A DNA stretch of 32,000 bases from Candidatus Methanophagaceae archaeon GoMg2 (GTDB lineage: Archaea > Halobacteriota > Syntropharchaeia > Alkanophagales > Methanospirareceae). The notes under the pieces were generated by a model. The model was not told where the DNA came from, did no database searches, and saw only the letters and a program-made list of their open reading frames with translations. The translations under genes were made by a program, and so were the position numbers. The DNA is taken from contig QBUM01000250.1 of NCBI GenBank assembly GCA_013180585.1, positions 1 to 32,000 on the forward strand, in the 5' to 3' direction. This document shows, one piece after another, positions 5,647 to 24,419 of this stretch; the first letter of the stretch is position 1, and each line of letters begins with the position of its first letter.

Positions 5647-5706
5647 TCAATTTATTACTAAAATGGCTACAAGAAGGCATAATATTCAACTAAAATTAAT
5701 TATTGA

Positions 5707-5771
5707 CACAGATTAACGCTGATTAACGCAGAAGAAATCAAATCTGTGTAAATCCGTGTAAATCTGCGTCC
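5707..5771 (-). mobile_element. Family-C element, short form with the two arms only
   Basis: cacagattaacgctgattaacgcagaagaaatcaaatctgtgtaaatccgtgtaaatctgcgtcc. Its arms are the reverse complements of those of the 2188-2322 copy. Confidence 0.5.
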
Positions 5772-5797
5772 TAAATAGATAGAAGTTATACTTTATA

Positions 5798-5902
5798 GAG
5801 GCTGTCCCACAATTGATTTTGATCATAAAAATATCGCTTCTTTTGGGTTTAAAGCTCTATTTGTCTTTCTTTTTCTGGCATTTTGGGATTGTTGGACAAC
5901 CT
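5798..5902 (+). mobile_element. Family-D MITE-like element, copy 2
   Basis: gaggctgtcccacaattgatttt ... gggattgttggacaacct. Collinear with the reverse complement of 3676-3782. Confidence 0.65.
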
Positions 5903-5953
5903 ATATATACAATAAAAAGGAAAAGAAAGTTTGTATGTAGTCTTATTATAAAT

Positions 5954-7183: not shown

Positions 7184-7284
7184 TTCTTCACTCCATAATC
7201 TATTTCATCCAGCCCTACATAAAATTATACATTTTAATTGATTAAAAACGAATATATTTTATTTACCTCAAAGCAATATATCGA

Positions 7285-7938
7285 ATGATGAAAATCAAAT
7301 TATTTGCGTTATTTGTCATGGTATTCCTCGTTGCCGCCGCACCTTCCCCTTGTGCGGGGGATGGGGAGAGCGAGAGCGAGGTGGTTCCGCCGAATCCTAT
7401 GGGGTTCATAGGGTCGTGGCATCCCGTGCCCGAGTGTGGGCAGTGTCATGTCACGCTTCTATCCGATGGTGAGTTGCGCGCAAAGCTCGGGTCTTGCAAG
7501 TGTCATAAGGAAGCATACACCAGTGGGGGGAATATAGATATGGGGAAGATAAGAACGGTGGCGCATGGTTCAAAGATATGCGTGGATTGTCACATAGGCA
7601 GTGGAATGCTAACCAGTACGGGGGAAATACCCTGTGATGACATCCATCGTGTCCACGATGTGGGCGTAGATTGTCAGGCATGCCATGGAGAGGAGGATAA
7701 CCCGCTAATACCGGAAACAGGGAATTGCAATTTCTGCCATCTCGGGGACGGTCATTCTATTCACGGCCAGAAAACGGGCGATCTCTGCGTTGCCTGCCAT
7801 GGCGCGTTTGGATCAGAATACAAGGAAGCGGGTTACCAGATGGTAGAGGGAGTCCCGGTAGTGATAGAAGAAGAAGTGGTGAAACATCCCACAATCTTAA
7901 ATACATTGAAAGCGTTGATAAGGTTCGTAATCGAATAA
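7285..7938 (+). CDS. Secreted multihaem c-type cytochrome with 5 CxxCH and one C-x-CH
   Basis: Signal peptide MMKIKLFALFVMVFLVAAAPSPCAG. Haem motifs are CGQCH, CVDCH, CQACH, CNFCH and CVACH. Paralogous to 4796-5347 (shared LIPETG block). Confidence 0.85.
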   Translation: MMKIKLFALFVMVFLVAAAPSPCAGDGESESEVVPPNPMGFIGSWHPVPECGQCHVTLLSDGELRAKLGSCKCHKEAYTSGGNIDMGKIRTVAHGSKICVDCHIGSGMLTSTGEIPCDDIHRVHDVGVDCQACHGEEDNPLIPETGNCNFCHLGDGHSIHGQKTGDLCVACHGAFGSEYKEAGYQMVEGVPVVIEEEVVKHPTILNTLKALIRFVIE

Positions 7939-7954
7939 AAGAGTGAGTAAACAG

Positions 7955-8386
7955 ATGAGAAAAGGAACTATTGTTGCAGTTGTTACCATTAACATTTTGG
8001 TTATAACCATCCTTACGAGTTCATGTATAAACTTAGAAGACGTGCCGGTTATAAACATAAAAACTGAGGTTACTTTGATAGATGAAAAGACGACAATTGA
8101 AATTGTCAGTGCGGAACAAGATGAGACCAGTATCTTGAAAAGTCCGAAGGGTACTTCTGTCGGTTTTCCAAGCGTGGATGCAAAGGCGCTAATCAATTAT
8201 GGACATGGTGGAGTCAGCTACTGGGCGGCAAAGGAATACACGGGGAGTGGCACGTATGAGCTTGTACTCGGCTTTGAGAAGGAGAGGGTGCCAAAAAAGG
8301 ACGATATAGTGAAGGTACTCGTGCGGGTAATAGATGGAAATGGCAAGACGATAGCGAGTACTACGCGAGTGATAATCTGGGAATAA
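7955..8386 (+). CDS. Small exported or lipoprotein-like protein of unknown function in the cytochrome operon
   Basis: MRKGTIVAVVTINILVITILTSSC is an anchor or lipobox-like sequence. The track ORF starts at GTG 7943. Tightly packed between the cytochrome and ccmF. It has no CcmE haem-binding motif. Confidence 0.55.
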   Translation: MRKGTIVAVVTINILVITILTSSCINLEDVPVINIKTEVTLIDEKTTIEIVSAEQDETSILKSPKGTSVGFPSVDAKALINYGHGGVSYWAAKEYTGSGTYELVLGFEKERVPKKDDIVKVLVRVIDGNGKTIASTTRVIIWE

Positions 8387-8389
8387 AAA

Positions 8390-10345
8390 ATGGAGACGGG
8401 GGAAATTTTTATAGTTTTAGCTTGCTTCTTACTGCTATCCGATTTTATTCTGTTGTTAATGGCAAAGCAAGAAGGGAGTAAGAAACGTGACCTCGCTTTT
8501 ATCGCTTCTGCCATCGCTTGCGTGCTGATAGTAGCCTCTTACTTCCGGCTCACAATGGCGTTCGTGAATGATAATTTTTGGATAAGTGAAGTTTACACGT
8601 ACAGTTCATCGGGCTTGTCGCTCATGTATAAGGTGGGCGACCCCTGGATAGGGAGTAGCGGGTCAATGCTCTTTATAATTTTCGTCTTTGCACTTGTATA
8701 TTTTACGTATCGGTTTAAAGGATTGGGAAAAGAGAGCGAGTTCCGTACAACTACCTACAAAATATTGGACGTCTTCCTCATCTTCCTCCTTCTCGTCACC
8801 CTTCTGAAGAGCCCTTTTGAACTTCTACCCGTGAATCCCCCGGATGGGGGGGGTCTAAATCCGTTGCTACAAACGTTATGGGTGCTTATTCATCCGCCTG
8901 TGGTCTTTTTGGGCTACGTATTTGTCTTCTTCGCATTCGCGCTGACGCTGGCGGGGATGATAACAAGGGAAAGCGAAAGGCAAGAAGTAAGAGCGACCTT
9001 AAAACGTTTCTTGTACACGGCATGGCTGTTCTTAGCACTTGGAATTGCGCTTGGTGGTTGGTGGTCTTATGAAGTACTGGGTTGGGGTGGATACTGGGCT
9101 TGGGACCCGGTGGAGACGGCGTCCTTACTTCCCTGGCTTGCTCTCACCGCGTACTTTCACCTGCCGGTAAGAAGCAAAGATTTGGCGAAGGAATTCACGC
9201 TCATGATTACGTTTTTCATGATTATCTTCGCCTCCGCTCTGACGCGAGGGGGGCTATTGGAATCGGTTCATGCGTTTGGGGAATCCCCAGTCGGGCCAGC
9301 ACTTATGTTATTCGCTTTTGGCGTCTTTTTATACTTCGTATATCTTGCGAAAAAAGCGAAAAAACCGCTTTATGCTTTTGAGATTGATTCTTCTTCACTT
9401 CACTCTGTCTCTATCTTTGTCGCTTACTGGTCGCTGATGATTCTGTTAATCATATGCTTTTTGGGCGATGCCGTGCCGATAATCGGTGGCTTTTTCCGCG
9501 ATGCGTCCATGACCACAAGCGCAGAATTTTATAACCGGTGGTGCTTCCCCTTTACACTCGCATTCGTAGCTGCGTTAATGGGCTGCAATCTCGGTCTGAA
9601 GCTGAAGAATTTTGCCTGGCTAATCACAGTGATATTGGGCATTGGAGTTGTGTTAGCACTGCTTGGACTACCCACGCCAAATCCACTTGCAAACTTCGGG
9701 CTCCCGCTCCTACTCACGGCGGGGTTTGCTATCGCGCATAGTTTTGTGCGTTCATTACAAAAGAAACAGCAATCATCACACGTGTTGGGCAAAACCCTCG
9801 TGCATCTCTCCGTCATAATTATCTTAATAGGCGTATTTATCAGCGCCACCGCGGAAACGGACAGTGGCAACATTCTCGCAAAACCCAACTCTGTTATTGA
9901 TACGCAGGGCGTGAAGATAGAATTAAATGATTTCGCAGTACACCCTGGTATAGGTAGCGTTTACCCCAGGACAGGGCATTTATTCACAGTCCCGGAATAT
10001 TCCGCTCTGAAAATGGACGCTACTATAGAGGATGGCGGGCGTGTCCATAATGAAATCCTGGAGCTGTACTACTATGCAAACTGGGGTGTGGTGTCCGAGC
10101 CTTTGATTATTACCTCTCTGTCCGGCGACATATACGTGTTCATGCAACATACAAACTCCAGTTATAGTTCCTTACGTTACGCCCTTATGGGCGGGATAGT
10201 TCAGCCAGAAGATTTTATCATCAATGTGAAGCGGGTCCCCCTGATATGGCTTGTTTGGCTGGGGATAATATTACAGGGATTGGGTATGACTATATTACTA
10301 TACGGTGAACTCAGGAAAACAGGAGCGAACTACAGCAAAAAATAA
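8390..10345 (+). CDS. ccmF: Cytochrome c maturation haem lyase CcmF
   Basis: 651 aa and polytopic. ALGGWWSYEVLGWGGYWAWDPVETASLLPWL is the CcmF-type WWD haem-handling motif. Confidence 0.85.
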   Translation: METGEIFIVLACFLLLSDFILLLMAKQEGSKKRDLAFIASAIACVLIVASYFRLTMAFVNDNFWISEVYTYSSSGLSLMYKVGDPWIGSSGSMLFIIFVFALVYFTYRFKGLGKESEFRTTTYKILDVFLIFLLLVTLLKSPFELLPVNPPDGGGLNPLLQTLWVLIHPPVVFLGYVFVFFAFALTLAGMITRESERQEVRATLKRFLYTAWLFLALGIALGGWWSYEVLGWGGYWAWDPVETASLLPWLALTAYFHLPVRSKDLAKEFTLMITFFMIIFASALTRGGLLESVHAFGESPVGPALMLFAFGVFLYFVYLAKKAKKPLYAFEIDSSSLHSVSIFVAYWSLMILLIICFLGDAVPIIGGFFRDASMTTSAEFYNRWCFPFTLAFVAALMGCNLGLKLKNFAWLITVILGIGVVLALLGLPTPNPLANFGLPLLLTAGFAIAHSFVRSLQKKQQSSHVLGKTLVHLSVIIILIGVFISATAETDSGNILAKPNSVIDTQGVKIELNDFAVHPGIGSVYPRTGHLFTVPEYSALKMDATIEDGGRVHNEILELYYYANWGVVSEPLIITSLSGDIYVFMQHTNSSYSSLRYALMGGIVQPEDFIINVKRVPLIWLVWLGIILQGLGMTILLYGELRKTGANYSKK

Positions 10346-10372
10346 ATAAAAACCGGAGAATTGGTTTATTGA

Positions 10373-11017
10373 TTAATGTGTTTTCTCCGGCGGATGGCAG
10401 ACATCACAGGTTTCTTCTTTATTAACGTTTACATCGTGGTCGTTGTGACAGGCAACACATTCATAACCCTCATAACTCGGACTCTCGTAGCCTTTGTACT
10501 CCCCAACCGGGTGCTCGGTGTGCAGAATTAGAGGCACATTCTCTCTAATCCCATCGTGGCACTCAACACACGAAATATCAGTACCTGTAATCACTTCCGG
10601 CATCTCAACATTGCGTTCCTCATGGCATTCCATACACCATTCGCTCTTTGGTGATGCAGGCGGTTTCTCTTCTATGTGATGTGCATGCTCCTCGAGTGCT
10701 TCGTTCATGCTCTTTCCTTCCATCATCCCTCCAGCTATCGCTTCAGCATGATGCGTGGCATGACCCATATACATGAACATTTCATCGACTATTTCTTCGT
10801 GCGAGTGATGGCAATCGTGACAATCTACGCCCTTATGCGCGGACACTTCCAAAGAGTCGTAAAAGGGCTGCATTTCATGACAGTTCGAAGCACAACTCTC
10901 TGGCTTCTCCATCTCATGCATCATTATAGGCATCATAATTGCCGCGCCACCGATAACTCCAACGGTAACCAGTACGACCAGCGCAATAATCACCTTCTCA
11001 CCTGTTTCCATACTCAA
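10373..11017 (-). CDS. Membrane-anchored hexahaem cytochrome, NapC/NirT/NrfH-like at the N-terminus
   Basis: An N-terminal TM (VIIALVVLVTVGVIGGAAIMM) is followed by CASNCHEMQPFYDSLEVSAHKGVDCHDCHH (NapC/NrfH pattern CxxCHEM...H...CxDCH). Further motifs are CMECH, CVECH, CVACH and CDVCH. SD aggagg lies upstream. Confidence 0.8.
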   Translation of the reverse strand: MSMETGEKVIIALVVLVTVGVIGGAAIMMPIMMHEMEKPESCASNCHEMQPFYDSLEVSAHKGVDCHDCHHSHEEIVDEMFMYMGHATHHAEAIAGGMMEGKSMNEALEEHAHHIEEKPPASPKSEWCMECHEERNVEMPEVITGTDISCVECHDGIRENVPLILHTEHPVGEYKGYESPSYEGYECVACHNDHDVNVNKEETCDVCHPPEKTH

Positions 11018-13288: not shown

Positions 13289-14215
13289 CTACACCCGCTC
13301 CAACCATCTCATATATCGCTCTTCTTTCGCATTCACGATGTCAAAGAACTTCCTTTGTATCGCACCTGTCACTTCGCCCCTCTTGCCTATCCCTATTATT
13401 ACATTGTCTATCTCTCGTATCGGCGACACTTCTGCTGCGGTGCCCGTGAAAAAAACTTCATCGGCTGATAATAACTCCTCCTTCTTTATGCTTTTCTCTA
13501 CCACTTCATACCCCATATCACGTGCGAGCTCGATTACGGACGCCCTGGTGATGCCAGGAAGAATAGAAGATTCTATCGCAGGTGTGTATAGAGTTGCGTT
13601 TTTTACTGCGAATATATTCTCGCCCGGACCTTCCGCTACGTAGCCTTTATTGTCGAGCAATATCGCCTCGTCAACTCCCTGTTCCTTAGCTTCATGTACT
13701 GCTAACATCGAATTCAGATAATGCCCCGTAGCTTTTGCCGTGACGGGCAATGTATTGGGGTCTATCCTTCGCCATGATGAGAATGCACATCTTATACCGT
13801 TCTCCAACGCATCATCGCCAAGATAAGCGCCCCAACGCCATGCTGCAACTGCACAATCCACAGGACAGCCCGCAGGGTTCACGCCTAAATGATGGAACCC
13901 ATAGAAAGCGATTGGCCTTATGTAGCACGCATCAAGTCCGTTTATACGAACCGTCCCTTTTATAGCTTCTGTCAGCTCTTCCTTCGAGTAAGGGATTTCC
14001 ATCTTGTACAACTCCGCTGACCGATACATCCTATCCACATGTTCCTTCAGCCGGAAGATAAACGAACCTTTGGCCGTGGCATAGCATCTTATCCCCTCAA
14101 AAACACCCGACCCGTAATGCAAACCATGCGCGAGCACGTGTACTGTGGCTTCTTCCCAATCCACAAATTTGCCGTTATACCATATTTTTCCCGATTCTGG
14201 TAGTCGCTCCACCAT
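13289..14215 (-). CDS. ilvE: Branched-chain amino acid aminotransferase
   Basis: MVERLPESGKIWYNGKFVDWEEATVHVLAHGLHYGSGVFEGIRCY...EGPGENIF...TPAIESSILPGITR. The track ORF extends to a TTG at 14236; the ATG at 14215 is preferred. Confidence 0.85.
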   Translation of the reverse strand: MVERLPESGKIWYNGKFVDWEEATVHVLAHGLHYGSGVFEGIRCYATAKGSFIFRLKEHVDRMYRSAELYKMEIPYSKEELTEAIKGTVRINGLDACYIRPIAFYGFHHLGVNPAGCPVDCAVAAWRWGAYLGDDALENGIRCAFSSWRRIDPNTLPVTAKATGHYLNSMLAVHEAKEQGVDEAILLDNKGYVAEGPGENIFAVKNATLYTPAIESSILPGITRASVIELARDMGYEVVEKSIKKEELLSADEVFFTGTAAEVSPIREIDNVIIGIGKRGEVTGAIQRKFFDIVNAKEERYMRWLERV

Positions 14216-14263
14216 TTTTATCGCCTCTGAAAGCAATGTCTTAATAAATTCTACATGTTTCTA

Positions 14264-14539: not shown

Positions 14540-15094
14540 CTATTTTTTCCCTACGCTGCGGAATGAGACAGCTATTACAAACCATATAATAAACGGCACC
14601 GCTATGCCTACAATCCCTATTGAAGCATAAACCATCGCTGCAAACTTTGAATGGTCTATATACATAGGAAAGCGTACCAGAATATCTGTGACATGCAGAA
14701 GAAATAGAATCGGGACGCCTATTGCAAGTATTTCAAGTCTCTTCTTCAGTATCAGCTTCGGCGTTGCTATCGCCAATGCGAACAACGGAACTAAATTAAA
14801 ATTCACAAGATAAGCTTTTCCTAAGTTAAGAGCAGCGATTTGCTCTTTTGTATAACCCATAAGAAGTGGAAAAGGTTTTGAAAACGCAAAGACCGCACTT
14901 TGATAAAATTCACCAAGGTAAAACTTCCACCATACAATTAGAAGCGCCGCGGCGACAACCAGGAACTCCAGCAAGAAGATCAAAATTTGATTCTTAGTTA
15001 AATTTAAAATATCGCATTTACCATTTGCCGGCGGCTTTTCATCTGCTTTCACTTCTTTCTTTCCCCCAGTTCCCCTGCGCTTATCCTTCGCCAT
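14540..15094 (-). CDS. Cys-less paralogue of the adjacent archaeosortase-like protein
   Basis: Overlaps the upstream gene by 14 nt. It has the same basic N-tail and TM layout, and AIATPKLILKKRLEILAIGVPILFLLHVTDILVRF aligns to the paralogue core. NLV occupies the position of ECT. Confidence 0.55.
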   Translation of the reverse strand: MAKDKRRGTGGKKEVKADEKPPANGKCDILNLTKNQILIFLLEFLVVAAALLIVWWKFYLGEFYQSAVFAFSKPFPLLMGYTKEQIAALNLGKAYLVNFNLVPLFALAIATPKLILKKRLEILAIGVPILFLLHVTDILVRFPMYIDHSKFAAMVYASIGIVGIAVPFIIWFVIAVSFRSVGKK

Positions 15095-15701
15095 CTGCCA
15101 CCACCACCTTCAGCCATATCAGAAAGAGCACTACCACGAATATGATAAAAGAAGCCTGCCACAGATACACGTGCATAAACTCAAACATCTCGGGATTGTG
15201 CATGCCAACAAGAGCCAGTACGAAAATACGAAGGAGGTTTATTGCATAGAGGCTGGGTACGCCGAAGAGGATACCCAGACCTTTCTGCTTTGGCGTTGCG
15301 GGATATGCTAATACACAGGAGCTATACACGATGGACGAGAAAACTGCGGTACATTCGTCTATTATCTCCATCGAGAAGCCATTGATTGTTAACACGTCGC
15401 CCCTCACAACTACGTCCAGCCCCACCAAAGAGAAGATAGCACCTAAAATTAATGCGGTGACGTGCCTCACATGCACCATTATCCCCGAGCCGCTAACTGT
15501 TATAGCGTAATAAACCATATAAAACGCGAAACAAAAAGCTAAGAAAAGAGCCACGTACTTTATTGCCTCCCCGTTCTCTTTTACTATTTCCAATATGGGG
15601 GTTAATATACCTTTTTTAGCAGGGGTTTTATCGTTAACGCTATGCGCCACATTCTTCTTGCTCTGCGTTCTTCCTCCTTTCCCCTTTTTTCGGGCCGTCA
15701 T
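15081..15701 (-). CDS. Small archaeosortase/exosortase-family protein
   Basis: 206 aa and polytopic. It carries the ordered Cys (MEIIDECTAVFSS), Arg (YAINLLRIFVLAL) and His (FEFMHVYLW) signature and sits directly downstream of a protein with a tripartite C-terminal sorting tail. Confidence 0.6.
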   Translation of the reverse strand: MTARKKGKGGRTQSKKNVAHSVNDKTPAKKGILTPILEIVKENGEAIKYVALFLAFCFAFYMVYYAITVSGSGIMVHVRHVTALILGAIFSLVGLDVVVRGDVLTINGFSMEIIDECTAVFSSIVYSSCVLAYPATPKQKGLGILFGVPSLYAINLLRIFVLALVGMHNPEMFEFMHVYLWQASFIIFVVVLFLIWLKVVVADGEG

Positions 15702-15791
15702 AAATGCAAAGAAAGAGAGAGAGTTGAAAAACGTTTAACTATTCCAACTTATTTTACAGTGCGAGAATAAAAACAAAAAGGGAAGACGGCC

Positions 15792-17435
15792 TTATCTACG
15801 TCTTCCTATCATACCTCTTATTGCAACCAGACTCAGCAGTCCAATCAAAGCTGCGATACCTACCGGCATAAGCACTGGTAGCTCTGGAACCCCTCTGATC
15901 TTTGTTATCGCCGACCGATCTATAGGCTCTGTCTCATCGGTAGTCAGGATAGCGGTATTGTTTATGACTGTTCCAGCAGGCACAAAAGCATTTATTTTGG
16001 CTTTAAACGTTGCATCTCCGCCTACTCCGGATGCCAACGTGCCTATATCCCATATCAGCGTGTTATTCACAGGATAATAGGTTCCCGCGTCATCATCCGC
16101 TGCGTCGGTTAGATCAACGCCGTTTAAGCCCATGCTTTCTGATATGTAAGTGGTGTTCGCTGGTATCGTATCATGTATCGTAGCGTTCGTAAGCGTTCCG
16201 GCTCCGATATTGTTATAGTGTATCCGGTAACTGAGCGTGTCATTGGAAGAAGCAAAGCTCTTATCAACCGTCTTATACGCAGATAGTTCAAAACTCGGTA
16301 ACACTAAAACCGTCGTATTCACAGAGGCGTTTTTCGGTTCTGTTTCATTTGTGTCTATCGTGGCGGTATTGGTTATTAACGTATTATTTGTGAGATAATC
16401 GTGAACCGTTACATCGAACGATTGCGTTCCCTCTGCTCCAATCAACAAGTTGCCTATGTTCCAGACGATTCTGCCCACATCTACTTTTCCACCACCGGAT
16501 ATGCTTCCATCAACTAAAGTGGTATCTGTGGGAATCGGGTCGGTTAAAATGACTTCTGTAAGGTCTTCGTTATCATCGTTCCTATAGGTTATTGTATAGC
16601 TTAGCACGTCACTACAGTTGCATGTTGGTTTACTGACGTTCTTAGTGATGCTGACATGTGGTTTTAATTCCCTTTGCATCTTCTCTTTTATTGCTTCAGG
16701 GAAAGCCTCCCAATTTGGAGCTTCCATGTAAAACCCGGAATGATTAGCTGGTTTTAGCGAATAATTCAACTTAACCAAGAATTCACGGTTATATGGCTGC
16801 GCGGGTGGGTGAGCTTCATCAATGACATCAACACCGAGAACGTTCACTTCGTCAAAATAGCCTTTAAATATCGCATCATCCCTCGCTTCATATGTTGCAT
16901 CTACGGCCGGTTGGTATTCTTCCCTATTTCCACCACATATCCAATTTGGTCGCCCATCTGTTGATATATCTATTATTTGCCTAACATTCGGAGAGGTATT
17001 TCCTCTTGTGACGTAATCCGTTAAGGTTTCGTTCGCTAATGTGAATGCTCTTGGCATTGGGGTATGATCCCCGGGCTGCGGCATAGCCAATATGGTGTCA
17101 GCGATGGAATCGGCAACGGTCTGGTTTGTGATTGTTGTAAGGGGCACTTCCACATTAGCGTAATATGGTGGGGAACGTGGCCCCTTAATACGGTTAGGGG
17201 GGAAATACCCAAACATGATTACACAAACTGAGATATCACCATTTTGTGGAGTTACCGATGAGTTTGATATAGCATCAGCGTATCCGTTCAATTGTATAGA
17301 ATAGTTCGCAGGGCTAATGCTATTGGACCCATCCAGTATCAAGAACAAATCCACCTTTTCCGCTGCGCTCACTCCTGTCAATGCAAAAGCAGAAATCACT
17401 AAAATCGCTGCAATAAATATTCCTCTTCCTTTCAT
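15792..17435 (-). CDS. Surface glycoprotein: signal peptide, vWA (MIDAS) domain, 2 DUF11 repeats, non-PGF C-terminal sorting signal
   Basis: Signal MKGRGIFIAAILVISAFALTGVSAAE; vWA motifs LILDGSNS and IIDISTDG; DUF11-like SYTITYRNDDNEDLTEVILTDPIP and SYRIHYNNIGAGTLTNATIHDTIP; about 18 N-x-S/T sequons; tail GVPELPVLMPVGIAALIGLLSLVAIRGMIGRRR. Confidence 0.8.
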   Translation of the reverse strand: MKGRGIFIAAILVISAFALTGVSAAEKVDLFLILDGSNSISPANYSIQLNGYADAISNSSVTPQNGDISVCVIMFGYFPPNRIKGPRSPPYYANVEVPLTTITNQTVADSIADTILAMPQPGDHTPMPRAFTLANETLTDYVTRGNTSPNVRQIIDISTDGRPNWICGGNREEYQPAVDATYEARDDAIFKGYFDEVNVLGVDVIDEAHPPAQPYNREFLVKLNYSLKPANHSGFYMEAPNWEAFPEAIKEKMQRELKPHVSITKNVSKPTCNCSDVLSYTITYRNDDNEDLTEVILTDPIPTDTTLVDGSISGGGKVDVGRIVWNIGNLLIGAEGTQSFDVTVHDYLTNNTLITNTATIDTNETEPKNASVNTTVLVLPSFELSAYKTVDKSFASSNDTLSYRIHYNNIGAGTLTNATIHDTIPANTTYISESMGLNGVDLTDAADDDAGTYYPVNNTLIWDIGTLASGVGGDATFKAKINAFVPAGTVINNTAILTTDETEPIDRSAITKIRGVPELPVLMPVGIAALIGLLSLVAIRGMIGRRR

Positions 17436-17575
17436 TTCATCCTCCTTTTTCTGTGTTGTTTCTATATGGTAATAACAGGTTGTTTTATCCCATTATATGC
17501 TTTTCGGGTACATTTCCGGTGGAGATAGCAGGTGTTGGCAAAACAGGTGCGGAACTAGTAAAAATGAATTATAAT

Positions 17576-17736
17576 TTGTATTTGTATAGCTAGGGGTAAA
17601 ACCACGAGATTTCACGAGATTAGCACAAGATTTTGGGGGTTAACATGGGATAAAAAAGCCAATAGTGCACTTAAGCCGGATCCAGAGTATTATCTTCTCG
17701 TGGAAATCTGTGTAATCGGCGGTTAGCTAAGCAAAC
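17576..17736 (+). mobile_element. Family-A MITE-like element, alpha subtype (A2)
   Basis: Collinear with 12018-12178 with few mismatches (..ggggtaaaaccacgagatttcacgagattagcacaaga...ggttagctaagcaaaca). Confidence 0.65.
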
Positions 17737-17823
17737 ACCATGATTTTAATGTCTAAAAACGAGGGAAACGTCCTTTAGTTACTCTTTCTTTTCTAAAGAA
17801 GCGCGTGATTTAAAAAAAGGTAA

Positions 17824-17983
17824 TTGTTTAGCTAACCACAAGATTACACAGATTTTCACGAGAATAGAAGGGCAGTAACCAGATTTTAGTATACCATAGA
17901 CCACATTATCCCACCGTAATCCCTATTTCTTGTGTTAATCTTGTGGAATCTCGTGGTTTTAAAAATTCGCTATACAAATACAA
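17824..17983 (-). mobile_element. Family-A MITE-like element, beta subtype (A3)
   Basis: ttgtttagctaaccacaagattacacagattttcacgagaatagaagg...cttgtgttaatcttgtggaatctcgtggttttaaaaattcgctatacaaatac. About 90% identical by eye to the reverse complement of 26023-26180. Confidence 0.65.
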
Positions 17984-18014
17984 AAAAAGAAAAAAAGAAA
18001 ATTGGTTATTCGTT

Positions 18015-18740
18015 TCAGCCCTTCCTTCTCCACCGCACTAAATACGCGACTGCGATTACCCCCGCAATAAAGAAAACGGCTTCAAATCCAGGGGTTGACG
18101 GCTTTGTCGTTGTACTTGGCGTTGGCTCTAGTGTTTCTGTAGGGGTTGTTGTCGGTGTTGGCGTTGCCTCATGTGTAGCCTCGGGACTCGCTGTTGGTGT
18201 AATTGTCTCATTTACCGCTGCTGGTGTAGCCGTTGCATTTGATGATGCTTCTACTTCGCTACTTTCGCTCGCTACGCCATTGCCTGAAATTGTTGCTGTT
18301 ACTACGGTTCTAGGTTCCACAAAAGTTACCTCCGTTAAATTCCATCCGCCACTACGACACCTTACGTGAATCCCTGCAACTCCCGTTTCATTTCCCGATA
18401 GTAGCGCGATTGCTGTGCCATTGTCATCTGTGATTACGTTAATACTGGAGCCGGTATTGCTTTCATTTCCCGCATCGGTAAGCCAAGCAGATGCCCCCTC
18501 CATTATAGACATAATCACCGTCTCATTCTCCGCAGGTTCACCACTATGTTCAGTTTCTTCCGGCCACCGAACCACCACTTTTATCTCTGACGTGGAATTG
18601 CCATCGGCAGGTATTTCAGCGGGATTCGCACTAATTGTCACCCAGTCACTCGCTCTGTCCGCTCCCGTCCCCTGCGCCCCTGCAAGAGCAGGAAGTGCAA
18701 ATAAAACTACTGCTAAAATTGCCCATATTCTTATTGTCAT
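18015..18740 (-). CDS. PGF-CTERM-anchored surface protein with an Ig-like (Big_1-type) domain and a Thr/Pro linker
   Basis: Signal MTIRIWAILAVVLFALPALAGA; WVTISANPAEIPADGNSTSEIKVVV; linker TPTPTTTPTETLEPTPSTTTKPST; terminal PGFEAVFFIAGVIAVAYLVRWRRKG. Confidence 0.85.
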   Translation of the reverse strand: MTIRIWAILAVVLFALPALAGAQGTGADRASDWVTISANPAEIPADGNSTSEIKVVVRWPEETEHSGEPAENETVIMSIMEGASAWLTDAGNESNTGSSINVITDDNGTAIALLSGNETGVAGIHVRCRSGGWNLTEVTFVEPRTVVTATISGNGVASESSEVEASSNATATPAAVNETITPTASPEATHEATPTPTTTPTETLEPTPSTTTKPSTPGFEAVFFIAGVIAVAYLVRWRRKG

Positions 18741-18815
18741 CTTTTATAATACCTCCTATTTAACTGTTCACAACGCAAAATAAAAATCTTTCGCTTTTTA
18801 TCTAATCCTTCTTAT

Positions 18816-18856
18816 AAAAAAAATAAAGAAGGAGGGATAAGGTTTTATCCTTATCC
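18816..18856 (-). terminator. Hairpin plus oligo-T terminator candidate after the 1553-aa gene
   Basis: On the minus strand, ggataagg-ataaaa-ccttatcc (perfect 8-bp stem) lies ~26 nt after the stop and is followed by ctccttctttatttttttt. Confidence 0.5.
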
Positions 18857-18881
18857 ACCTACACTAAAGTTTGTCGTTTGT

Positions 18882-21800
18882 TTACGATACTTTGTATGTC
18901 CAGTATGCTTTTCCGGGTTCGAGTTCTTCGCCTGGTGGTCCTGGTATCAACGACATGAAGTCGTATGGATATGGGTATCCGTTCCTGTATTTCAGAATCA
19001 CTGCACTTAGCGGTATATCCTTACCATCCATGCGTAAACTCTCGTTGCCTATACCTATCAGGTTCCAGCCCGTACCTGAATTGTCGTAAATCTCTTGCCA
19101 CGTTAGTGATACACCAGTTCCGTATACTGTAATCTCCTTCGGCGCCCATGGGTTGTACACGTAGTAGCCCTTGCCACCCTCTACTTCACTTGCTTCTGAC
19201 CAGCCCGTTGTTGCATTATAGCTCCATACTTCCACGTCACGACCGAAGATAGCTTCCGTGTTTTTATTGTCTGGTATTACTGGCAGTGATACGTAGTTCT
19301 GTCCCACATCAAGCGGGACGATGAATGGTTTTTTTCCCGGCTCAAATATGGGTATCTCTGGGTCCTTGTTCATGTAGATGCCTGTGCCATCCTCTGGGTT
19401 GTACGTGAATGCGAACCTATCTCTCGCCGGGTATGACTGACCACGGTTCAGGTCGCCTTTTGCATTCGGTGCAAAGAACGAAGTCGTGATTATGTAACAT
19501 CCCGGTTGTGCATTGTTCACCATATCAAACCGTATATCAGGCTCGAATGTGAGCTGATATTCGCCGCCCACGTAAACCTCTGGGTTCAACGAAGGTATCT
19601 CAGGCAGTAGGAATCTGGTGTACTCGTCTGGTATCGTCTGTATATCGAACTTAGTCCATGACTCGATAAGACCACTCTCGTTCAGTATCTCTAGCAAGTT
19701 AGTCGAATATCTCGGCTCTGGCTTTTCATCTTTCCAGCAGAACTCCAACGGATCCAGATCCTCTATGATTCGCTCGTCAACGTCGTTTGCAATCCAGTGT
19801 TCGGTGTCAAAGACCGTGAATCTACCAGGCAGCGGCATTGGTATTCCGCATTCGCAACACTGCCAGCCATTTGGCACTGCTACATTTACGTCTCCCGGAT
19901 AGAACGGACCTCCATAGTCACTCCATAACTGCCAATCTGATGGTATACTTGTAGTCATATCTCCGTCTGTATCAATCGGCACTGCACGGAAGAATCTCAA
20001 CCATGCTGCCGGTGGATACTGCATTGTCAGGTAGCGTTCTCCACATGGGAAGTACTCTGTACCTGCTTTTCCGGTATCTCTATCGCCATAAGGCCACTTG
20101 TCCAGTAGTTTCAATGGTTGCCACAGTACCACATCGGTATCGTCCACGAGTTCGTGATCCATGTTCATCGGTGGAAGCACTGGTAGTGCCAATAGCGGAT
20201 AGCAAGGTTTAACTTTCGTGAGCCATTGCGAGTCTGCACATGGCAGATAATGTTGTCTCAGTGTGTATTCGCCATCGTCAAGATACTTCGGAAGTGGTGT
20301 TCTCAATGTTATGTACTTGAACTTCTCACAATCATATCTGTTCCCATCGTTGTCCAGAACCTCTATTGCAGGTATCTCGTATCGCACTCCGTCCACGTAG
20401 AAGATGTCTCCTCTCTGTAATTCTTTACCCACTGTGATCAGTGCCTTATCTCCAGAAAATCGTCCTTCGTAGTTAGCATACCATGTTCTATCTGGATGCT
20501 TTTTTGTTGTTTCGAAACTATGTCTATCGAAGTACTTTCTTTCATTAGTTTTCAAATAGTTTTGTACACCATCTTCTGGTTCGGAATTACCGTAGTACGA
20601 TATGAACACCATCGGATAGCTATCAGATATGTCATATCCATCGAATAGCAGACTGTGGTCAAGGAATTGCACTTCATCGCCTTCCTCCATGATGTACGTC
20701 TTCTCTATACTTATTGTTCCGTTTGTTGTTTTCGGTAGTAACCCGTCCATGTCCGATGGGTCGCAAGATATGTTTGCGAGTCTTACAAGGTTAGTCCTTT
20801 TAGACTCGGCACCTGGGTTCTCAAAAGAATCAAGTCCTATCTGATCCGTTGTTGGATCTGATACGATTGGGAATGGGAACCAACTGCCTACATCTGCATG
20901 ATGTGGTTTCTTGTCCTGCGAATCAATAAGCATATAAGTTGTCTCGATAACTATTGCTGGTGCTAACCCAATCATCTCATGCCAGCCATAGAACTCGTAC
21001 TCGGGCACATACCATACTCTTAAGTACTCCTTCAGGTCACTGTTTTCATCCTGTGCATTTGTTGGATACTCTGGGCTGTGTCGTAGTATCGCTGCATCAA
21101 AGGTGATCGAATCCTTTCTTATCGCAGTCGGATTGAAAGGCTCTTCCCAGCTCACGTATTGCTCGATATTGCAGCTATTGTTAATTCCAAACGTGCTATC
21201 ACTACCATTACCGTATATCTTCACTGTGCCTTTCTTTAGCTCTTCATCATAGTACACATAGATGTCATTACCGTCCTCTCCGTCCTTCTGATCGTATGAG
21301 AACGCGACTCTCTGTTCAGTGGGATCTCCACCTCTTTTGTTGTCGTACAAATCTCCTGTTGCTTGCGGTGCAATCCACGAAGTCGTGATGATGTAATCAC
21401 CATCAAGTTCGACCGGCCAGCCACCATCTCTAGGTATTGTATAATAGTCTGGTAGTTCAGGTAGCACGAACATTGTGTACTGGTCTGGTAGAGACTGAAC
21501 ATCGAATTTCGTCCATGACTCTGTTATTAGTCCTCCTGCCTCTTCTCTTATCTTCTCTATGGTTTTATCCACGATGATCTCAGAATTTTCTGCAAATATG
21601 TAGAAACCTGGTGGAATATTCCATGGTTGTGGGTTTGCCAAGCTCTTCAAAAAGTCTTCATCAATCGAGTCCGCAGATTCTCCTAGCCCGAAAACGTTTA
21701 TTACATCAAGTCCCGCATCCAATGAAGCATTTCTCGCTTCCATCGTTGCATCAGCATCTCCGCTTGGTATGCCTCCATCACTGGATATATCAAGTATTTG

Positions 21801-23543
21801 CAGTCTTGCACTGGCATCTGGATTTTCTTCTATGAGTGTTTTTATTTTGTCGAATGCTGCAATCATGTTGGTGCCGCCATCTATTGCGTCCATCGCCCGT
21901 ATCTGTGTCGCAACACTGTTGACTGTGTCAGGTGTTATTGTAGTAAGTGGTACTTCTACCTTGGCAACGTCCGAAAACTGAATCACACACACAGAGACAG
22001 TGCCATCCTGAGGTATTTCGTATATCGCCGAAGCTAAACCTTCTTTCTGCAAATCAAAGTATCCGTGCATAGCCAGGTTTTGTGATGAATCAACAACAAG
22101 GAATAAATCCTTTTGCTCTTTACCTTTCCAGTCTTCTCGCAGCTTCTCCAGTAAATTCGTTGAATATCGCTCTTCTACTTGCTCTTCGATGTATATAACC
22201 TCTAATGGGTCTATGTTATCAATTACTCGCATCTCAACATCGTATGCGATCCAATCGCCCTCGCTGTCTGTAAGTTCTGTACCATCATAATCCTGCCTTG
22301 TCCAGTCTCTTTCTTCTGTAGCATCTGTCCACAACGGTATGTCTATGTCATCAACCATGTCATGGTTCATGTTAAACGGCGGAAGCAGCGGTATTAACTC
22401 TGATTGCGCGATACACTCTATAAACTGTGTAGATACTATGCTCTCATCACGAACAGAATCATCGCCCTTCGGCAGCTTCGTCCTCAGCGTTAGGAACTTG
22501 AAAGCATCCGCTTCACCATCTAGCGGTTGTAATGTATCAAGCACTGCGACTGCCGTTACATCGTATCTTACTGCATCAACGTAGAACACATCGCCCCAGT
22601 TTAGCTCCTTACCGACGTAGATAAGAGGTCCATCCCGGCGTACATACCATGTCCTCATCGGAGTTGTTGTGTCTTCACCGTGATTCGGACTGGGATGCTC
22701 ATTGTTATGACGGTCAAAGTATATTGTTTGTTGAGGACCTATACTGATCCAGCCTTTTTCTGCATCGTCCAGTTTATTTCCTGTATACCCCACTTTTATA
22801 ACGTAGTCATCAGTTTCTTCATTGACCGTGGTGAGTTCCACATAGTGATCGAAGAACCGCACAGTAGATCCTACAACCGGAGTAAATTGCTTCTCGAGAG
22901 TAATGTTTCCCTTTACAGTTGTACCGTCTGGATCTACAATTCCACTAACACTTGCAAGCGTGGTTATGTTGTCAACATTTGTTCCGCTCTTCCATGCACC
23001 GAGTCCCGTCTGTGTATCAATCTCACATGTTGGTACTAAAAATTGTGTCTTTGGTGCTGTGCCCGTTATTGGTAGATACAAAGTGTCCATCAGCATGTAA
23101 GTGTATTCCATGTTTATCGTGGGATGTGTGTCATTCTTTCTCGGACCATTGTACTGACCACAGGGCTCGTACCATGACCTCAAGAATATCTTCTCACGGG
23201 CGTTCTCTGGACTGCCGATCGCATTACCTACTAATACACGATAATACGGTTCCCCTTCTTCGTGGCTCTCTTCAATAATCGCTGGATTGTACGTGATCGA
23301 ATCTTTTGGTATTACTGTCGGGTCAAATGGGTCTTCAAAATTGATATATCGCTCTGGTGCATTCCCATGTGGTTGCACGTCACCGTATATCCTTACCGAA
23401 GAAGCAGGTTCTTCCTCTGGAGGAAACCCCCCATTCGTTCCTGCCATACTGGTAGGCGCGACCATAGCAAATATCGAAGCGACCATTATCGCCGCCATTG
23501 CTATCCCTACTATCACTTTTCCTTCTCTTACTTTTGTTTTCAT
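18882..23543 (-). CDS. Giant secreted protein (1553 aa): two tandem copies of an uncharacterised ~650-aa module, a vWA domain inserted in copy 1, and a distinct C-terminal beta-rich domain
   Basis: Single uninterrupted track ORF; signal peptide MKTKVREGKVIVGIAMAAIMVASIFAMVAPTSMAG; SD aggagg. The internal duplication and vWA motifs are detailed in the findings. Confidence 0.9.
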   Translation of the reverse strand: MKTKVREGKVIVGIAMAAIMVASIFAMVAPTSMAGTNGGFPPEEEPASSVRIYGDVQPHGNAPERYINFEDPFDPTVIPKDSITYNPAIIEESHEEGEPYYRVLVGNAIGSPENAREKIFLRSWYEPCGQYNGPRKNDTHPTINMEYTYMLMDTLYLPITGTAPKTQFLVPTCEIDTQTGLGAWKSGTNVDNITTLASVSGIVDPDGTTVKGNITLEKQFTPVVGSTVRFFDHYVELTTVNEETDDYVIKVGYTGNKLDDAEKGWISIGPQQTIYFDRHNNEHPSPNHGEDTTTPMRTWYVRRDGPLIYVGKELNWGDVFYVDAVRYDVTAVAVLDTLQPLDGEADAFKFLTLRTKLPKGDDSVRDESIVSTQFIECIAQSELIPLLPPFNMNHDMVDDIDIPLWTDATEERDWTRQDYDGTELTDSEGDWIAYDVEMRVIDNIDPLEVIYIEEQVEERYSTNLLEKLREDWKGKEQKDLFLVVDSSQNLAMHGYFDLQKEGLASAIYEIPQDGTVSVCVIQFSDVAKVEVPLTTITPDTVNSVATQIRAMDAIDGGTNMIAAFDKIKTLIEENPDASARLQILDISSDGGIPSGDADATMEARNASLDAGLDVINVFGLGESADSIDEDFLKSLANPQPWNIPPGFYIFAENSEIIVDKTIEKIREEAGGLITESWTKFDVQSLPDQYTMFVLPELPDYYTIPRDGGWPVELDGDYIITTSWIAPQATGDLYDNKRGGDPTEQRVAFSYDQKDGEDGNDIYVYYDEELKKGTVKIYGNGSDSTFGINNSCNIEQYVSWEEPFNPTAIRKDSITFDAAILRHSPEYPTNAQDENSDLKEYLRVWYVPEYEFYGWHEMIGLAPAIVIETTYMLIDSQDKKPHHADVGSWFPFPIVSDPTTDQIGLDSFENPGAESKRTNLVRLANISCDPSDMDGLLPKTTNGTISIEKTYIMEEGDEVQFLDHSLLFDGYDISDSYPMVFISYYGNSEPEDGVQNYLKTNERKYFDRHSFETTKKHPDRTWYANYEGRFSGDKALITVGKELQRGDIFYVDGVRYEIPAIEVLDNDGNRYDCEKFKYITLRTPLPKYLDDGEYTLRQHYLPCADSQWLTKVKPCYPLLALPVLPPMNMDHELVDDTDVVLWQPLKLLDKWPYGDRDTGKAGTEYFPCGERYLTMQYPPAAWLRFFRAVPIDTDGDMTTSIPSDWQLWSDYGGPFYPGDVNVAVPNGWQCCECGIPMPLPGRFTVFDTEHWIANDVDERIIEDLDPLEFCWKDEKPEPRYSTNLLEILNESGLIESWTKFDIQTIPDEYTRFLLPEIPSLNPEVYVGGEYQLTFEPDIRFDMVNNAQPGCYIITTSFFAPNAKGDLNRGQSYPARDRFAFTYNPEDGTGIYMNKDPEIPIFEPGKKPFIVPLDVGQNYVSLPVIPDNKNTEAIFGRDVEVWSYNATTGWSEASEVEGGKGYYVYNPWAPKEITVYGTGVSLTWQEIYDNSGTGWNLIGIGNESLRMDGKDIPLSAVILKYRNGYPYPYDFMSLIPGPPGEELEPGKAYWTYKVS

Positions 23544-23586
23544 GTTCTTTTTATTTACCTCCTGTGATACAGGTGGGAAGTTTGAG

Positions 23587-23595
23587 TATATAAAA
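23587..23595 (-). promoter_or_regulatory. TATA-box candidate for the 1553-aa gene
   Basis: The minus strand reads gcttttatatactc about 45 nt upstream of the ATG. SD aggagg lies at 23558-23563. Confidence 0.4.
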
Positions 23596-23740
23596 GCATA
23601 TGTCGAAAACAGGTGTATTTCTCCTCTGCCTGATCAACATTTAAATAGGGTACATTTCGTGTCGAGAAAATGTGGCCAAATGTGTGGAGGGGAAATGCAG
23701 GGGAAGCTGGGGAAAAGTGGGGATACTCTAACAAATGGTA

Positions 23741-23818
23741 GTTGTATAGCAGGGGTAAATAAACCACGCGATTCCACGAGAATCACACAAGGATTTTTGG
23801 GGTTAACCAGGGATTAAA
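23741..23818 (+). mobile_element. Family-A element, alpha subtype, left half only (A4)
   Basis: gttgtatagcaggggtaaataaaccacgcgattccacgagaatcacacaaggatttttggggttaaccagggatt aligns to the first ~80 bp of A1 and A2, then homology stops. Confidence 0.55.
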
Positions 23819-24009
23819 CCGTAACTTCGACCATTTTTAGGAATATGTTTTTGTGTGATGGTTTTAGATGTCTTTTTTCGTGTATTCATTGCTTTTCCTT
23901 ACTTATCCTTATTTGTGTGGATATTACTAATTTTGGTAATATGAAAGGTGGGAACAATAAAAAACGAAAAACGCAGAAGTACCCCCAAAATCAAAAAAAC
24001 TACGGGAAA

Positions 24010-24064
24010 AACTAGAACACAAACTAACTGAAGAACCTATTACGAAAAGAGGTTAAAGTTACAG
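24010..24064. repeat. Family-B repeat, copy 2
   Basis: The same 55-bp string as window positions 1-55. Confidence 0.8.
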
Positions 24065-24110
24065 ATTAAAGAGTCAATAAAGTGCTTACGCCTGAAATAT
24101 TTTATTGCCT

Positions 24111-24238
24111 TTCCACGAGAATAGAAGGACAGTAACCAGATTTTAGTATACCATCGGTCACATTACCCCACATTAATCCCAATTTCTTGTGTTAATCTTG
24201 TGGAATCTCGTGGTTTTAAAAATTCGCTATACAAATAC
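24111..24238 (-). mobile_element. Family-A element, beta subtype, lacking its distal terminus (A5)
   Basis: ccacgagaatagaaggacagtaaccagattttagtatacc...cttgtgttaatcttgtggaatctcgtggttttaaaaattcgctatacaaatac. Collinear with 17855-17983. Confidence 0.6.
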
Positions 24239-24419
24239 ATTGTGGTTAACCAAACAAGCGCAAAAAAAATTAATAGCTACTCTTCCCTTCTTCAGGTGCC
24301 CTTGCGTGAAGCATTTTAGAGTATATACAGCAATCCGGATTTACCCTTGCTCCTATTCTTTCGTTGTAATCGCAAAATACAATATGCTATTTTTGCTTCG
24401 GGTTGGCATAGTTGATCCT

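Follow-up and report, generated by a model that had tools for sequence, protein, structure and literature searches.

The DNA analysed here (the window) is a 32,000-nt stretch of contig QBUM01000250.1 from Candidatus Methanophagaceae archaeon GoMg2. It contains a block of five minus-strand genes that we interpret, with a probability of about 0.6, as two adjacent cell-surface modules of an archaeon of the anaerobic methanotrophic group ANME-1: (i) a dedicated archaeosortase system, comprising the sortase, a membrane protein encoded next to it (the partner) and a surface protein to be anchored (the cargo), and (ii) a giant secreted protein together with a small PGF-CTERM protein bearing an immunoglobulin-like (Ig-like) domain. 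All five open reading frames (ORFs) were recovered at the positions and in the order given by a previous reading based on the letters alone (the sequence-only reading), whose domain calls (a giant protein with a von Willebrand factor type A (vWA) domain, a PGF-CTERM protein, a vWA-DUF11 protein and an archaeosortase) agree with Pfam and NCBIfam scores. Its supposition of an ANME-like host was also correct, the sortase and the 184-aa partner each matching a deposited protein of 'ANME-1 cluster archaeon GoMg2' at 100% identity. The features of the locus are:

14540-15094, minus strand: partner gene (184 aa), a probable inactive sortase paralogue
15081-15701, minus strand: small archaeosortase gene (206 aa), Exosortase_EpsH and TIGR04178 matches
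15792-17435, minus strand: cargo gene (547 aa), with signal peptide, vWA domain, two CLIPPER/DUF11 domains and sorting tail
15795-15887, minus strand: C-terminal sorting signal of the cargo (motif, helix, basic end)
17436-18014, no strand: intergenic gap of 579 bp between the two modules, with an oligo-T tract, an element resembling a miniature inverted-repeat transposable element (MITE), a putative gene remnant and a GGAGG sequence
18015-18740, minus strand: PGF-CTERM Ig-like protein gene (241 aa), PF18204 tail and Big_1/Invasin_D3-like domain
18882-23543, minus strand: giant secreted protein gene (1553 aa), with signal peptide, inserted vWA domain and internal duplication
23544-24419, no strand: region upstream of the giant gene, with a second MITE-like copy (~23690-24240) and a GGAGG ribosome-binding site

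The 206-aa sortase belongs to the exosortase/archaeosortase superfamily, scoring 40.5 bits on Exosortase_EpsH (PF09721; cut-off 25.7) and 60.4 bits on the exo/archaeosortase signature TIGR04178 (cut-off 23). Among the curated subfamily models, ArtB (TIGR04144) ranked highest with 108.7 bits (cut-off 150) and XrtH (TIGR04177) second with 82.4 bits (cut-off 86), and ArtA (TIGR04125) gave a partial match of 32.3 bits (cut-off 75). For seven more members of this clade (ANME-1, Syntrophoarchaeum, Archaeoglobus and Geoglobus) the ArtB scores range from 90 to 114 bits and the XrtH scores from 78 to 98 bits; some of them exceed the XrtH cut-off of 86 and none of those tested reaches the 150 bits required for ArtB. 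Judged by these scores, the window enzyme is a member of an ArtB/XrtH-like archaeosortase clade, lying under both subfamily cut-offs. It is because the clade falls between the two curated families that its public names are divided between 'exosortase H' and 'archaeosortase B'. An alignment of 16 diverse homologues revealed that Cys117 (in IIDECTA), Arg158 (AINxLR) and His177 (FxHVYLWQ) are invariant; the catalytic role of this Cys/Arg/His set, the division into archaeosortase subfamilies and the mechanism of ArtA are taken from the ArtA literature (PMC6098224). The N-terminus of the enzyme is basic and cytoplasmic.

The start of the partner gene overlaps the sortase stop by 14 nt, which suggests translational coupling. 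Its product is a 184-aa multi-helix membrane protein (modelled by AlphaFold2 as a helical bundle, with a mean predicted local distance difference test score, pLDDT, of 81.5) with the family-invariant motifs AYLxNFNLVP..ATP and GxPxLFLLHVxD. Using tblastn, we found a homologue of the partner directly downstream of the sortase in all 22 archaeal genome loci and in none of nine bacterial XrtH-like loci (L030-L038; loci are cited by our own numbers); in most of the archaeal loci its start overlaps the sortase stop or sits within ~70 nt of it, and one locus has a gap of 674 nt. A reciprocal metagenome scan seeded on the partner yielded 80 loci, with the sortase upstream in 39 of the 43 that retained at least 1.2 kb of upstream sequence; among the four others is one in which the partner gene is duplicated. 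Duplicated copies were observed in L018 (3032-3547 and 4672-5181) and L072 (1-270 and 1194-1757), and L070, L094 and L114 are further loci in which the partner is either duplicated or has no sortase within 2.4-4 kb upstream. Partner and enzyme are therefore not strictly one-to-one. No Pfam or NCBIfam model covers the partner family, and each of its 126 detected homologues is annotated as 'hypothetical' (126/126).

The sequence-only reading had described the partner as a Cys-less paralogue of the sortase, which is supported by profile-profile comparison and not by BLASTP. Profile methods were needed because the BLASTP comparison of the two window proteins was not significant. When the two families were compared with hhalign, two independent alignment sets gave probabilities of 84-94% (E 1e-6 to 2e-8) over 104-182 collinear columns, as against 0.1-1.5% in controls with either family reversed. 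The sortase hidden Markov model (HMM) matches several partner ORFs directly (E 5e-8 to 1.6e-5), one partner/sortase pair is detected by BLASTP itself (E 1.4e-4 over 211 residues), and the two families have local motifs in common (AYPT/ATPK and GVPSLYAINxLR/GxPxLFLLHVxD). Since a separate hhalign run with a different alignment pair was weaker (31.6% over 31 columns), we regard the homology as probable, not proven. In the alignment, Cys117 of the sortase falls opposite a two-residue gap in the partner, Arg158 corresponds to an invariant Asp137 and Asn155 to an invariant His134; His177 has no conserved counterpart, and no invariant Cys was found among 42 members of the partner family. The partner is thus a probable catalytically inactive, divergent paralogue of the sortase, predicted from these alignments to keep none of the three catalytic residues.

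The cargo consists of a Sec signal peptide, a DUF1194-type vWA domain (residues ~27-259), two CLIPPER/DUF11 domains (261-375 and 388-505) and a sorting tail. Pfam assigned two copies of DUF11 (PF01345; 90.4 bits) and one DUF1194 (PF06707; 56.1 bits, cut-off 27), and NCBIfam two copies of B_ant_repeat and an RrgB isopeptide domain. The metal-ion-dependent adhesion site (MIDAS) of the vWA domain, a predicted metal site, is complete (D35/S37/S39/T125/D160) and invariant in 11 orthologues. CLIPPER domains are stalk domains stabilised by an isopeptide bond (PMC12617251), and two candidate isopeptide triads, K265/D299/N356 and K388/D422/N493, are likewise invariant in the 11 orthologues; these were placed by motif and not by alignment with the structure 9IFR, a search of the cargo against PDB sequences for mapping the residues onto 9IFR having returned no match.

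The tail of the cargo, which the sequence-only reading had rightly separated from the PGF type, is built of three parts: the motif GVPELPVLMP, a hydrophobic helix (VGIAALIGLLSLVAI) and the basic end RGMIGRRR. Orthologues of the cargo in L020, L021 and L046 read VPVLMP where the window has LPVLMP, so this tail can be viewed as a VPXXXP-type signal in which Leu replaces the first Val. Unrelated passengers encoded beside homologous sortases carry VPTLTP, VPVLTP, VPALTP, VPAITP or VPLLTP, followed in each case by xG[IL]xAL[IV]GLLS and a stretch of R/K. Near this sortase, varied proteins yielded 30 distinct tails, with the literal VPxxxP in at least 20. On the curated VPXXXP-CTERM model (TIGR04143), tails of related loci and of vWA relatives scored 7-22.4 bits, all under the cut-off of 30, and they were also sub-threshold on midcut_by_XrtH and IPTL-CTERM (the L005 tail, for instance, reached 17.3 bits on PF18203 against a cut-off of 20.8). 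The window tail itself gave no match to IPTL-CTERM (TIGR04174/PF18203), the cognate signal of XrtH. Considering the motif and its surroundings, we propose that the cargo tail represents a variant form within the VPXXXP/IPTL class of signals and that the adjacent sortase is its expected processing enzyme. The idea of a dedicated sortase encoded beside its cargo gains support from the relatives, the same cargo being present in 7 of the 22 genome loci and other VP-tailed cargos in many more. Such a sortase-cargo logic has already been described for archaeosortases and exosortases (secondary sources PMC12617251 and PMC6098224).

We also observed that the three structural genes, unlike the sortase gene, each have a strong GGAGG ribosome-binding site before them, and that a T-rich tract (TTTTTGTTTTTATT) follows the cargo stop codon (regions inspected: 15702-15791, 17436-17470, 18741-18881 and 23544-23570). 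This arrangement would fit high expression of the cargo and low expression of the enzyme.

The giant protein of the second module (1553 aa) has a signal peptide and no membrane anchor. Its parts, all encoded on the minus strand, are:

residues 43-470 (nt 22134-23417): A1
residues 475-668 (nt 21540-22121): inserted vWA domain
residues 672-755: B1
residues 767-1289 (nt 19677-21245): A2
residues 1296-1386: B2
residues 1400-1553 (nt 18885-19346): C-terminal 'GWNLIG...GxAYW' beta domain

The protein is internally duplicated (A1/A2 30% identity, E 6e-48; B1/B2 36%, E 4e-17), and the vWA domain is inserted between A1 and B1, the second repeat being continuous at the equivalent point. This insert is the only part with a Pfam match (VWA_2, PF13519; residues 479-639, 32.5 bits, cut-off 27); its metal motif reads D-S-S-Q-N, with Asn for the second Ser, and the GGT and SSDG elements are present. 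The giant has 94 detected homologues, all uncharacterised, which come from ANME-1, Argoarchaeum and Methanolobus. The ten nearest of them (55-90% identity) have the vWA domain, as has a remote group with 25-28% identity; it is absent from intermediate homologues, and others have PKD, dockerin or cohesin domains in its place. AlphaFold2 predicted an all-beta structure for residues 770-1553 (pLDDT 80.8, predicted template modelling score 0.73). Against the PDB, sequence search gave nothing beyond the vWA trace and profile search was empty; the best Foldseek match was the DUF1608 domain of a Methanosarcina S-layer protein (3u2g), at a non-significant E of 2.6e-3 (TM-score 0.24 on the target, root-mean-square deviation 19 Å). 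Neither Pfam DUF1608 nor any NCBIfam S-layer model matched. We considered classing the giant as an S-layer protein and rejected this, no significant PDB match having been obtained by sequence, profile or Foldseek.

In the neighbouring Ig protein (241 aa), a signal peptide is followed by a single Big_1/Invasin_D3-like domain, which a Thr/Pro-rich linker connects to the tail PGFEAVFFIAGVIAVAYLVRWRRKG. This tail is a PGF-CTERM signal according to PF18204 (27.9 bits at the extreme C-terminus, cut-off 18.8); on TIGR04126 (cut-off 24.5) it scored 26.6 bits when taken alone and 21.6, below the cut-off, as part of the whole protein. Big_1 and Invasin_D3 are sub-threshold in the window protein and clear in its orthologues. 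A gene for a PGF-tailed protein (233-342 aa where the ORF is complete) is the next one downstream of the giant gene in 12 of the 19 homologues examined. A homologue of the giant from Methanolobus ends in a dockerin and is located between two cohesin proteins, a layout that supports, by analogy only, the reading of a secreted protein with a neighbour-encoded anchor.

Two variations of this gene pair were recorded. In L052 (6938-7840), L061 (7017-7919) and L071 (7293-8195) the giant gene is followed by a gene for a 300-aa Ig-like protein without a PGF tail, which ends in a 'GxGYW' motif, as does the C-terminal domain of the giant; this common end points to a shared interaction or assembly domain. 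The giant homologues of L006 (2246-7021), L098 (1716-6788) and L109 (3334-8058) appear by eye to end in a dockerin (e.g. HGGNGNGEVDLPEL) and not in GxGYW, and still precede a PGF-CTERM protein gene.

Both modules contain DUF1194-like vWA domains, which the sequence-only reading took for close paralogues. This part of it did not hold: the domains share only 34% identity (E 3e-16), and neither has the other as its nearest relative. When the giant insert was searched against the full library, 103 cluster representatives were detected at E ≤1e-10, several of them nearer to it than the neighbour's domain (up to 47% identity by BLASTP, 51% in the search table). As many of the best matches end in VP-type tails, the insert appears to derive from the vWA cargo pool of this sortase class, and not recently from the adjacent gene. 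One match ends in PGF-CTERM, a relative weakly resembles marine_srt_targ, and a bacterial vWA relative of 250 aa passes IPTL-CTERM with 40.2 bits against 20.5 (the relatives of window 21528-22136 concerned are P0338, P0341, P0344-P0347, P0349 and P0363). DUF1194-type vWA domains recur as cargos of ArtB/XrtH-type enzymes, so that a domain without known function becomes linked to sorting in both archaea and bacteria.

The conservation of the neighbourhood was assessed in ~28 non-redundant loci whose upstream flank extends over 7 kb or more, and the co-occurrence figures are rough hand counts. All five component types occur together in ~11 of these loci and a giant homologue lies near the sortase pair in ~15. 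The exact order of giant, PGF-Ig, vWA-DUF11, sortase and partner was found in the window and in L008, L044 and L047, and again, broken off at the contig end, in L045 and L010. Some loci have the giant, Ig, sortase and partner genes without a VP-tailed gene between them (L007, L014/L077, L022, L052, L061, L071, L086, L098/L099 and L109/L110), in several cases with a VP-tailed cargo on the far side of the giant gene; others have vWA-DUF11, sortase and partner without the giant (L001, L020, L021, L043, L046 and L048), giant homologues without a sortase (Methanolobus and L039) or different VP-tailed cargos near the sortase pair. The expected synteny of the five genes was therefore confirmed as far as co-localisation is concerned and not as an obligate association. 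The sequence-only reading had itself allowed that flanking repeats might have juxtaposed these genes by chance. We reject this, since the same order recurs in relatives whose sortases are 70-93% identical to that of the window and whose intergenic gaps differ in length. The five-gene association is real, older than the repeats of the window and not obligate, and we interpret the locus as two adjacent units whose neighbourhood is conserved and probably functional. One contig with such genes, L014 (DATKXZ010000023.1), is labelled 'Desulfobacteria bacterium'; its archaeal sortase-partner pair, giant and PGF-Ig genes are near-identical to those of L077, and the contig probably stems from ANME-1 and was wrongly placed in a bacterial metagenome-assembled genome.

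The five genes had been presented as one block, but they do not form one tight operon. Their intergenic distances are -14, 90, 579 and 141 bp, and the 579-bp gap contains an oligo-T tract after the PGF gene, a MITE-like element (17597-17961) with terminal inverted repeats of ~41 nt (TAAAACCACGAGATTYCACRAGATTA) and a GGAGG before the cargo gene; the block probably comprises at least two transcription units. The MITE-like element has six intergenic matches in the window, where zero are expected: its two fuller copies (17597-17961 and ~23690-24240) bracket the giant/PGF-Ig gene pair, and further inverted-repeat matches lie at 5604, 12038 and 26043. The gap also holds a stretch of 28 codons (17465-17548, minus strand) that is 68% identical to the C-terminus of a 709-aa secreted protein encoded in L001 directly upstream of the vWA-DUF11 gene, with a further match in L008 (71% identity). 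This stretch is either the rearrangement scar of a lost gene or a conserved leader.

Scanning for tRNA genes and Rfam RNAs gave no match in the window. Outside the locus it resembles an ordinary archaeal chromosome, with genes for TFIIB, Gar1, prefoldin and Phe-tRNA synthetase as well as a cluster of multihaem cytochromes and CcmF. According to the window annotation this cluster is:

4613-11017: multihaem c-type cytochromes (c7/c3/NapC-like) and a CcmF-like maturation protein

A functional link between it and the sortase locus, as envisaged in the sequence-only reading, was rejected, no cytochrome genes being present beside the sortase in the five relatives with annotated flanks (L001, L003, L005, L006 and L007). 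The partner gene is adjoined by a class IV aminotransferase gene both in the window (13289-14236, minus strand) and in L001 (11472-12398), whose sortase is 71% identical to that of the window; this is probably no more than conserved local gene order.

We propose the following mechanism for the two modules. In module 1 (14540-17435), the cargo would be exported by the Sec pathway and kept in the membrane by its C-terminal helix. The sortase (Cys117 as nucleophile, with Arg158 and His177) would recognise the VPXXXP-type motif, here LPVLMP, remove the helix and basic tail and, by analogy with Haloferax ArtA, join the new C-terminus to a membrane lipid. The product would be a short, covalently anchored fibrillar adhesin, in which two CLIPPER domains, probably stabilised by isopeptide bonds (as CLIPPER biology and the invariant Lys/Asp/Asn suggest), form a stalk that would hold the metal-dependent vWA (MIDAS) head off the membrane. 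Going by the gene arrangement, the partner is most likely complexed with the sortase as a non-catalytic subunit, either a scaffold or a presenter of substrate or lipid. In module 2 (18015-23543), the anchorless giant beta-protein, with an inserted vWA domain of the same subfamily, would be secreted and probably tethered by the small PGF-CTERM Ig protein on its Thr/Pro-rich stalk, a role again suggested by gene order. An adhesion layer in which a sortase assembles an anchored receptor and a secreted scaffold, serving cell-cell or cell-mineral contact, as imagined in the sequence-only reading, would be a conjectural function of such an arrangement.

Several points weigh against the proposed scheme. 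The sortase misses both the ArtB and the XrtH cut-off, and the window tail (LPVLMP) matches none of the curated CTERM models in NCBIfam and Pfam. We know of no experiment on any ArtB- or XrtH-type enzyme, so that cleavage and lipidation rest on the ArtA analogy. The modules are parted by an oligo-T tract, a MITE and 579 bp, and each also occurs without the other. Moreover, PGF-CTERM is classically a signal for ArtA, and module 2 may therefore not depend on this sortase.

These last points would be explained if the modules were two unrelated neighbouring surface units, the giant and PGF-Ig proteins relying on a separate ArtA-type enzyme without any tie to the sortase module. Such a separation, which we consider rather unlikely, is favoured by the composition of the gap, by the GGAGG that each structural gene has of its own, by the six loci that have vWA-DUF11, sortase and partner genes but no giant (L001, L020, L021, L043, L046 and L048), by the Methanolobus giant homologues without a nearby sortase and by the role of PGF-CTERM as an ArtA signal (PMC6098224); there may also be a second sortase, since the Meyerdierks metagenome of ANME-1 contained two PF09721-type proteins (PMC5244752). 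However, many lineages with sortases only 50-93% identical to that of the window have the giant and Ig genes immediately upstream of the sortase pair (among them L006, L007, L014, L022, L044, L047, L052, L061, L071, L098 and L109), and the association of these genes outlasts changes of order, as in L019, L052, L061 and L071, where the VP-tailed cargo gene is found past the giant gene and on the other strand. Furthermore, the giant of this clade acquired a vWA subfamily typical of VP-tailed cargos. The opposite extreme, i.e. a sortase-partner pair of dual specificity that accepts both VPXXXP-type and PGF-CTERM tails (with the partner perhaps as a second recognition site) and replaces ArtA in ANME-1, seems improbable to us. 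It would account for the PGF-CTERM genes directly upstream of the sortase, with no VP-tailed gene between, in L007, L014/L077, L022, L086, L090 and L098, and for the report of Timmers et al. (2017) of PGF-CTERM proteins but no archaeosortase A/C domain in a trusted ANME-1 metagenome (PMC5244752). That census is based on one incomplete metagenome from 2010 and on TIGRFAM cut-offs, the two motifs are markedly unlike (PGF vs VPxxxP-xG), and VP-tailed cargos are still nearby in several of these loci.

Two further alternatives concern single components. The 184-aa protein could be no paralogue of the sortase but a small membrane protein of other descent, for example part of a transporter or a membrane chaperone, with co-transcription as its sole connection to the enzyme. 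The non-significant BLASTP comparison, the single hhalign run at 31.6% over 31 columns and the failure to obtain a structural match for the partner are in line with this; the two hhalign sets at 84-94% over 104-182 collinear columns (≤1.5% when reversed), the direct HMM matches, the BLASTP pair at E 1.4e-4 over 211 residues, the common motifs, and the similar length and basic N-terminus of both proteins make it, in our estimate, a distinctly doubtful explanation. For the giant, we considered whether this tandem-duplicated beta-protein could be the missing S-layer or sheath subunit of ANME-1, which would make the cluster an envelope-assembly locus and not an adhesin locus. The envelope protein of ANME-1 is regarded in the literature as unidentified (PMC5244752, PMC9012536), the giant resembles the tandem DUF1608 S-layer protein of Methanosarcina in its large size, secretion, lack of an anchor, all-beta make-up and internal duplication, and its top Foldseek match is the S-layer domain 3u2g. 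On the other hand, that match is not significant (E 2.6e-3, TM-score 0.24, 19 Å), no DUF1608, NCBIfam S-layer or PDB profile match exists, the Methanolobus homologues with dockerins beside cohesins look like accessory surface display and not like a lattice, and the giant gene is missing from the neighbourhood in half of the loci, so that we judge this role very unlikely.

The reading as two adjacent surface modules has a bolder extension, which we offer as speculation with little expectation that it will prove correct: the sortases of ANME-1 and Archaeoglobi may work only as heteromers with their dead paralogue, the pair anchoring both VPXXXP-type adhesins and the PGF-CTERM protein and building, together with the giant, an outer layer or cell-cell contact matrix of ANME-1. 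If this were true, the partner would represent the first description of a pseudo-enzyme subunit in the exosortase/archaeosortase superfamily, and a requirement for it would change how archaeosortase mechanism and specificity should be studied. A large share of the anaerobic oxidation of methane in the sea is carried out by ANME-1 archaea in physical partnership with sulfate-reducing organisms. For the surface of these archaea the locus supplies concrete, conserved candidates, namely a MIDAS adhesin that could be lipid-anchored and a giant secreted protein with its probable anchor. In addition, a sortase clade between ArtB and XrtH would justify separate models for the enzyme, its signal and the partner.

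A search of the literature retrieved no description of the locus, the partner or ANME-1 archaeosortases beyond the statement that ANME-1 lack ArtA/ArtC domains and yet have PGF-CTERM proteins, made in a review that treats the envelope as unresolved (PMC5244752); two genomic reviews disagree on the presence of an S-layer in ANME-1 (PMC5244752, PMC9012536). The closest known system is ArtB with VPXXXP-CTERM. The window has in common with it a small enzyme (~160-200 aa) with a Cys/Arg/His core and ArtB as its best curated model, a tail composed of V/L-P-x-x-x-P, a helix and basic residues, and a cargo gene adjoining the enzyme gene. This pair, archaeosortase B and VPXXXP-CTERM (TIGR04144/TIGR04143), was reportedly defined by Haft, Payne and Selengut in 2012. 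Unlike it, the clade described here has enzymes scoring 90-114 bits against the cut-off of 150, tails scoring at most 22.4 against 30 and continuing after the motif into the extended conserved helix start xG[IL]xAL[IV]GLLS, and a probably inactive paralogue always downstream, which is not mentioned in the literature searched (the primary Haft 2012 paper excepted). The hosts differ as well, being ANME-1, Syntrophoarchaeum and Archaeoglobi, whereas ArtB was counted in a halophilic methanogen (PMC5244752).

XrtH (TIGR04177/TIGR04174/NF033207) is the second-best model and is passed by some clade members, hence the name 'exosortase H' given by the Prokaryotic Genome Annotation Pipeline; its IPTLxxWG signal resembles VPTLTPxG, and a bacterial DUF1194 vWA protein with a true IPTL-CTERM is among the nearest vWA relatives. 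The window system differs from XrtH in the score of its enzyme (82.4 against 86), in its archaeal hosts, in tails without Trp and in the partner, which was not detected in nine bacterial loci. In the Haloferax volcanii system of ArtA and the S-layer glycoprotein, the enzyme is likewise a superfamily member, and its type of signal, a genuine PGF-CTERM, is present on the 241-aa neighbour. The window sortase, however, reaches only 32.3 bits on ArtA (cut-off 75) and is ~100 residues shorter than the ArtA model. To our knowledge, ArtA is the only experimentally studied member of the superfamily and has no known inactive paralogue subunit. Its substrates are many and scattered around the genome.

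Similarities extend to systems outside this superfamily. Sortase-anchored pilus and fibrillar adhesins (RrgA, GBS104) combine a MIDAS vWA head, a CnaA-like isopeptide stalk, a sorting signal and a dedicated transpeptidase, and the marine proteobacterial pairing of a dedicated sortase with a vWA target (TIGR03788) follows the same logic, the transpeptidase being encoded alongside. In contrast to these, the window enzyme has a membrane-embedded exosortase-type fold instead of the sortase beta-barrel, the expected acceptor is a lipid and not peptidoglycan, and there is no evidence of polymerisation. The second module recalls the cohesin-dockerin display of Methanosarcinales and ANME, where a dockerin forms the end of giant homologues from Methanolobus and, apparently, from some ANME-1 loci; the window giant, by contrast, lacks a dockerin and ends in 'GWNLIG...GxAYW', and its neighbour is a PGF-CTERM Ig protein and not a cohesin protein. 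Thus, the pairing of enzyme and cargo is known from other systems, and what appears to be new is the sortase clade with its signal variant, the pseudo-sortase partner and the conserved link to a giant surface protein.

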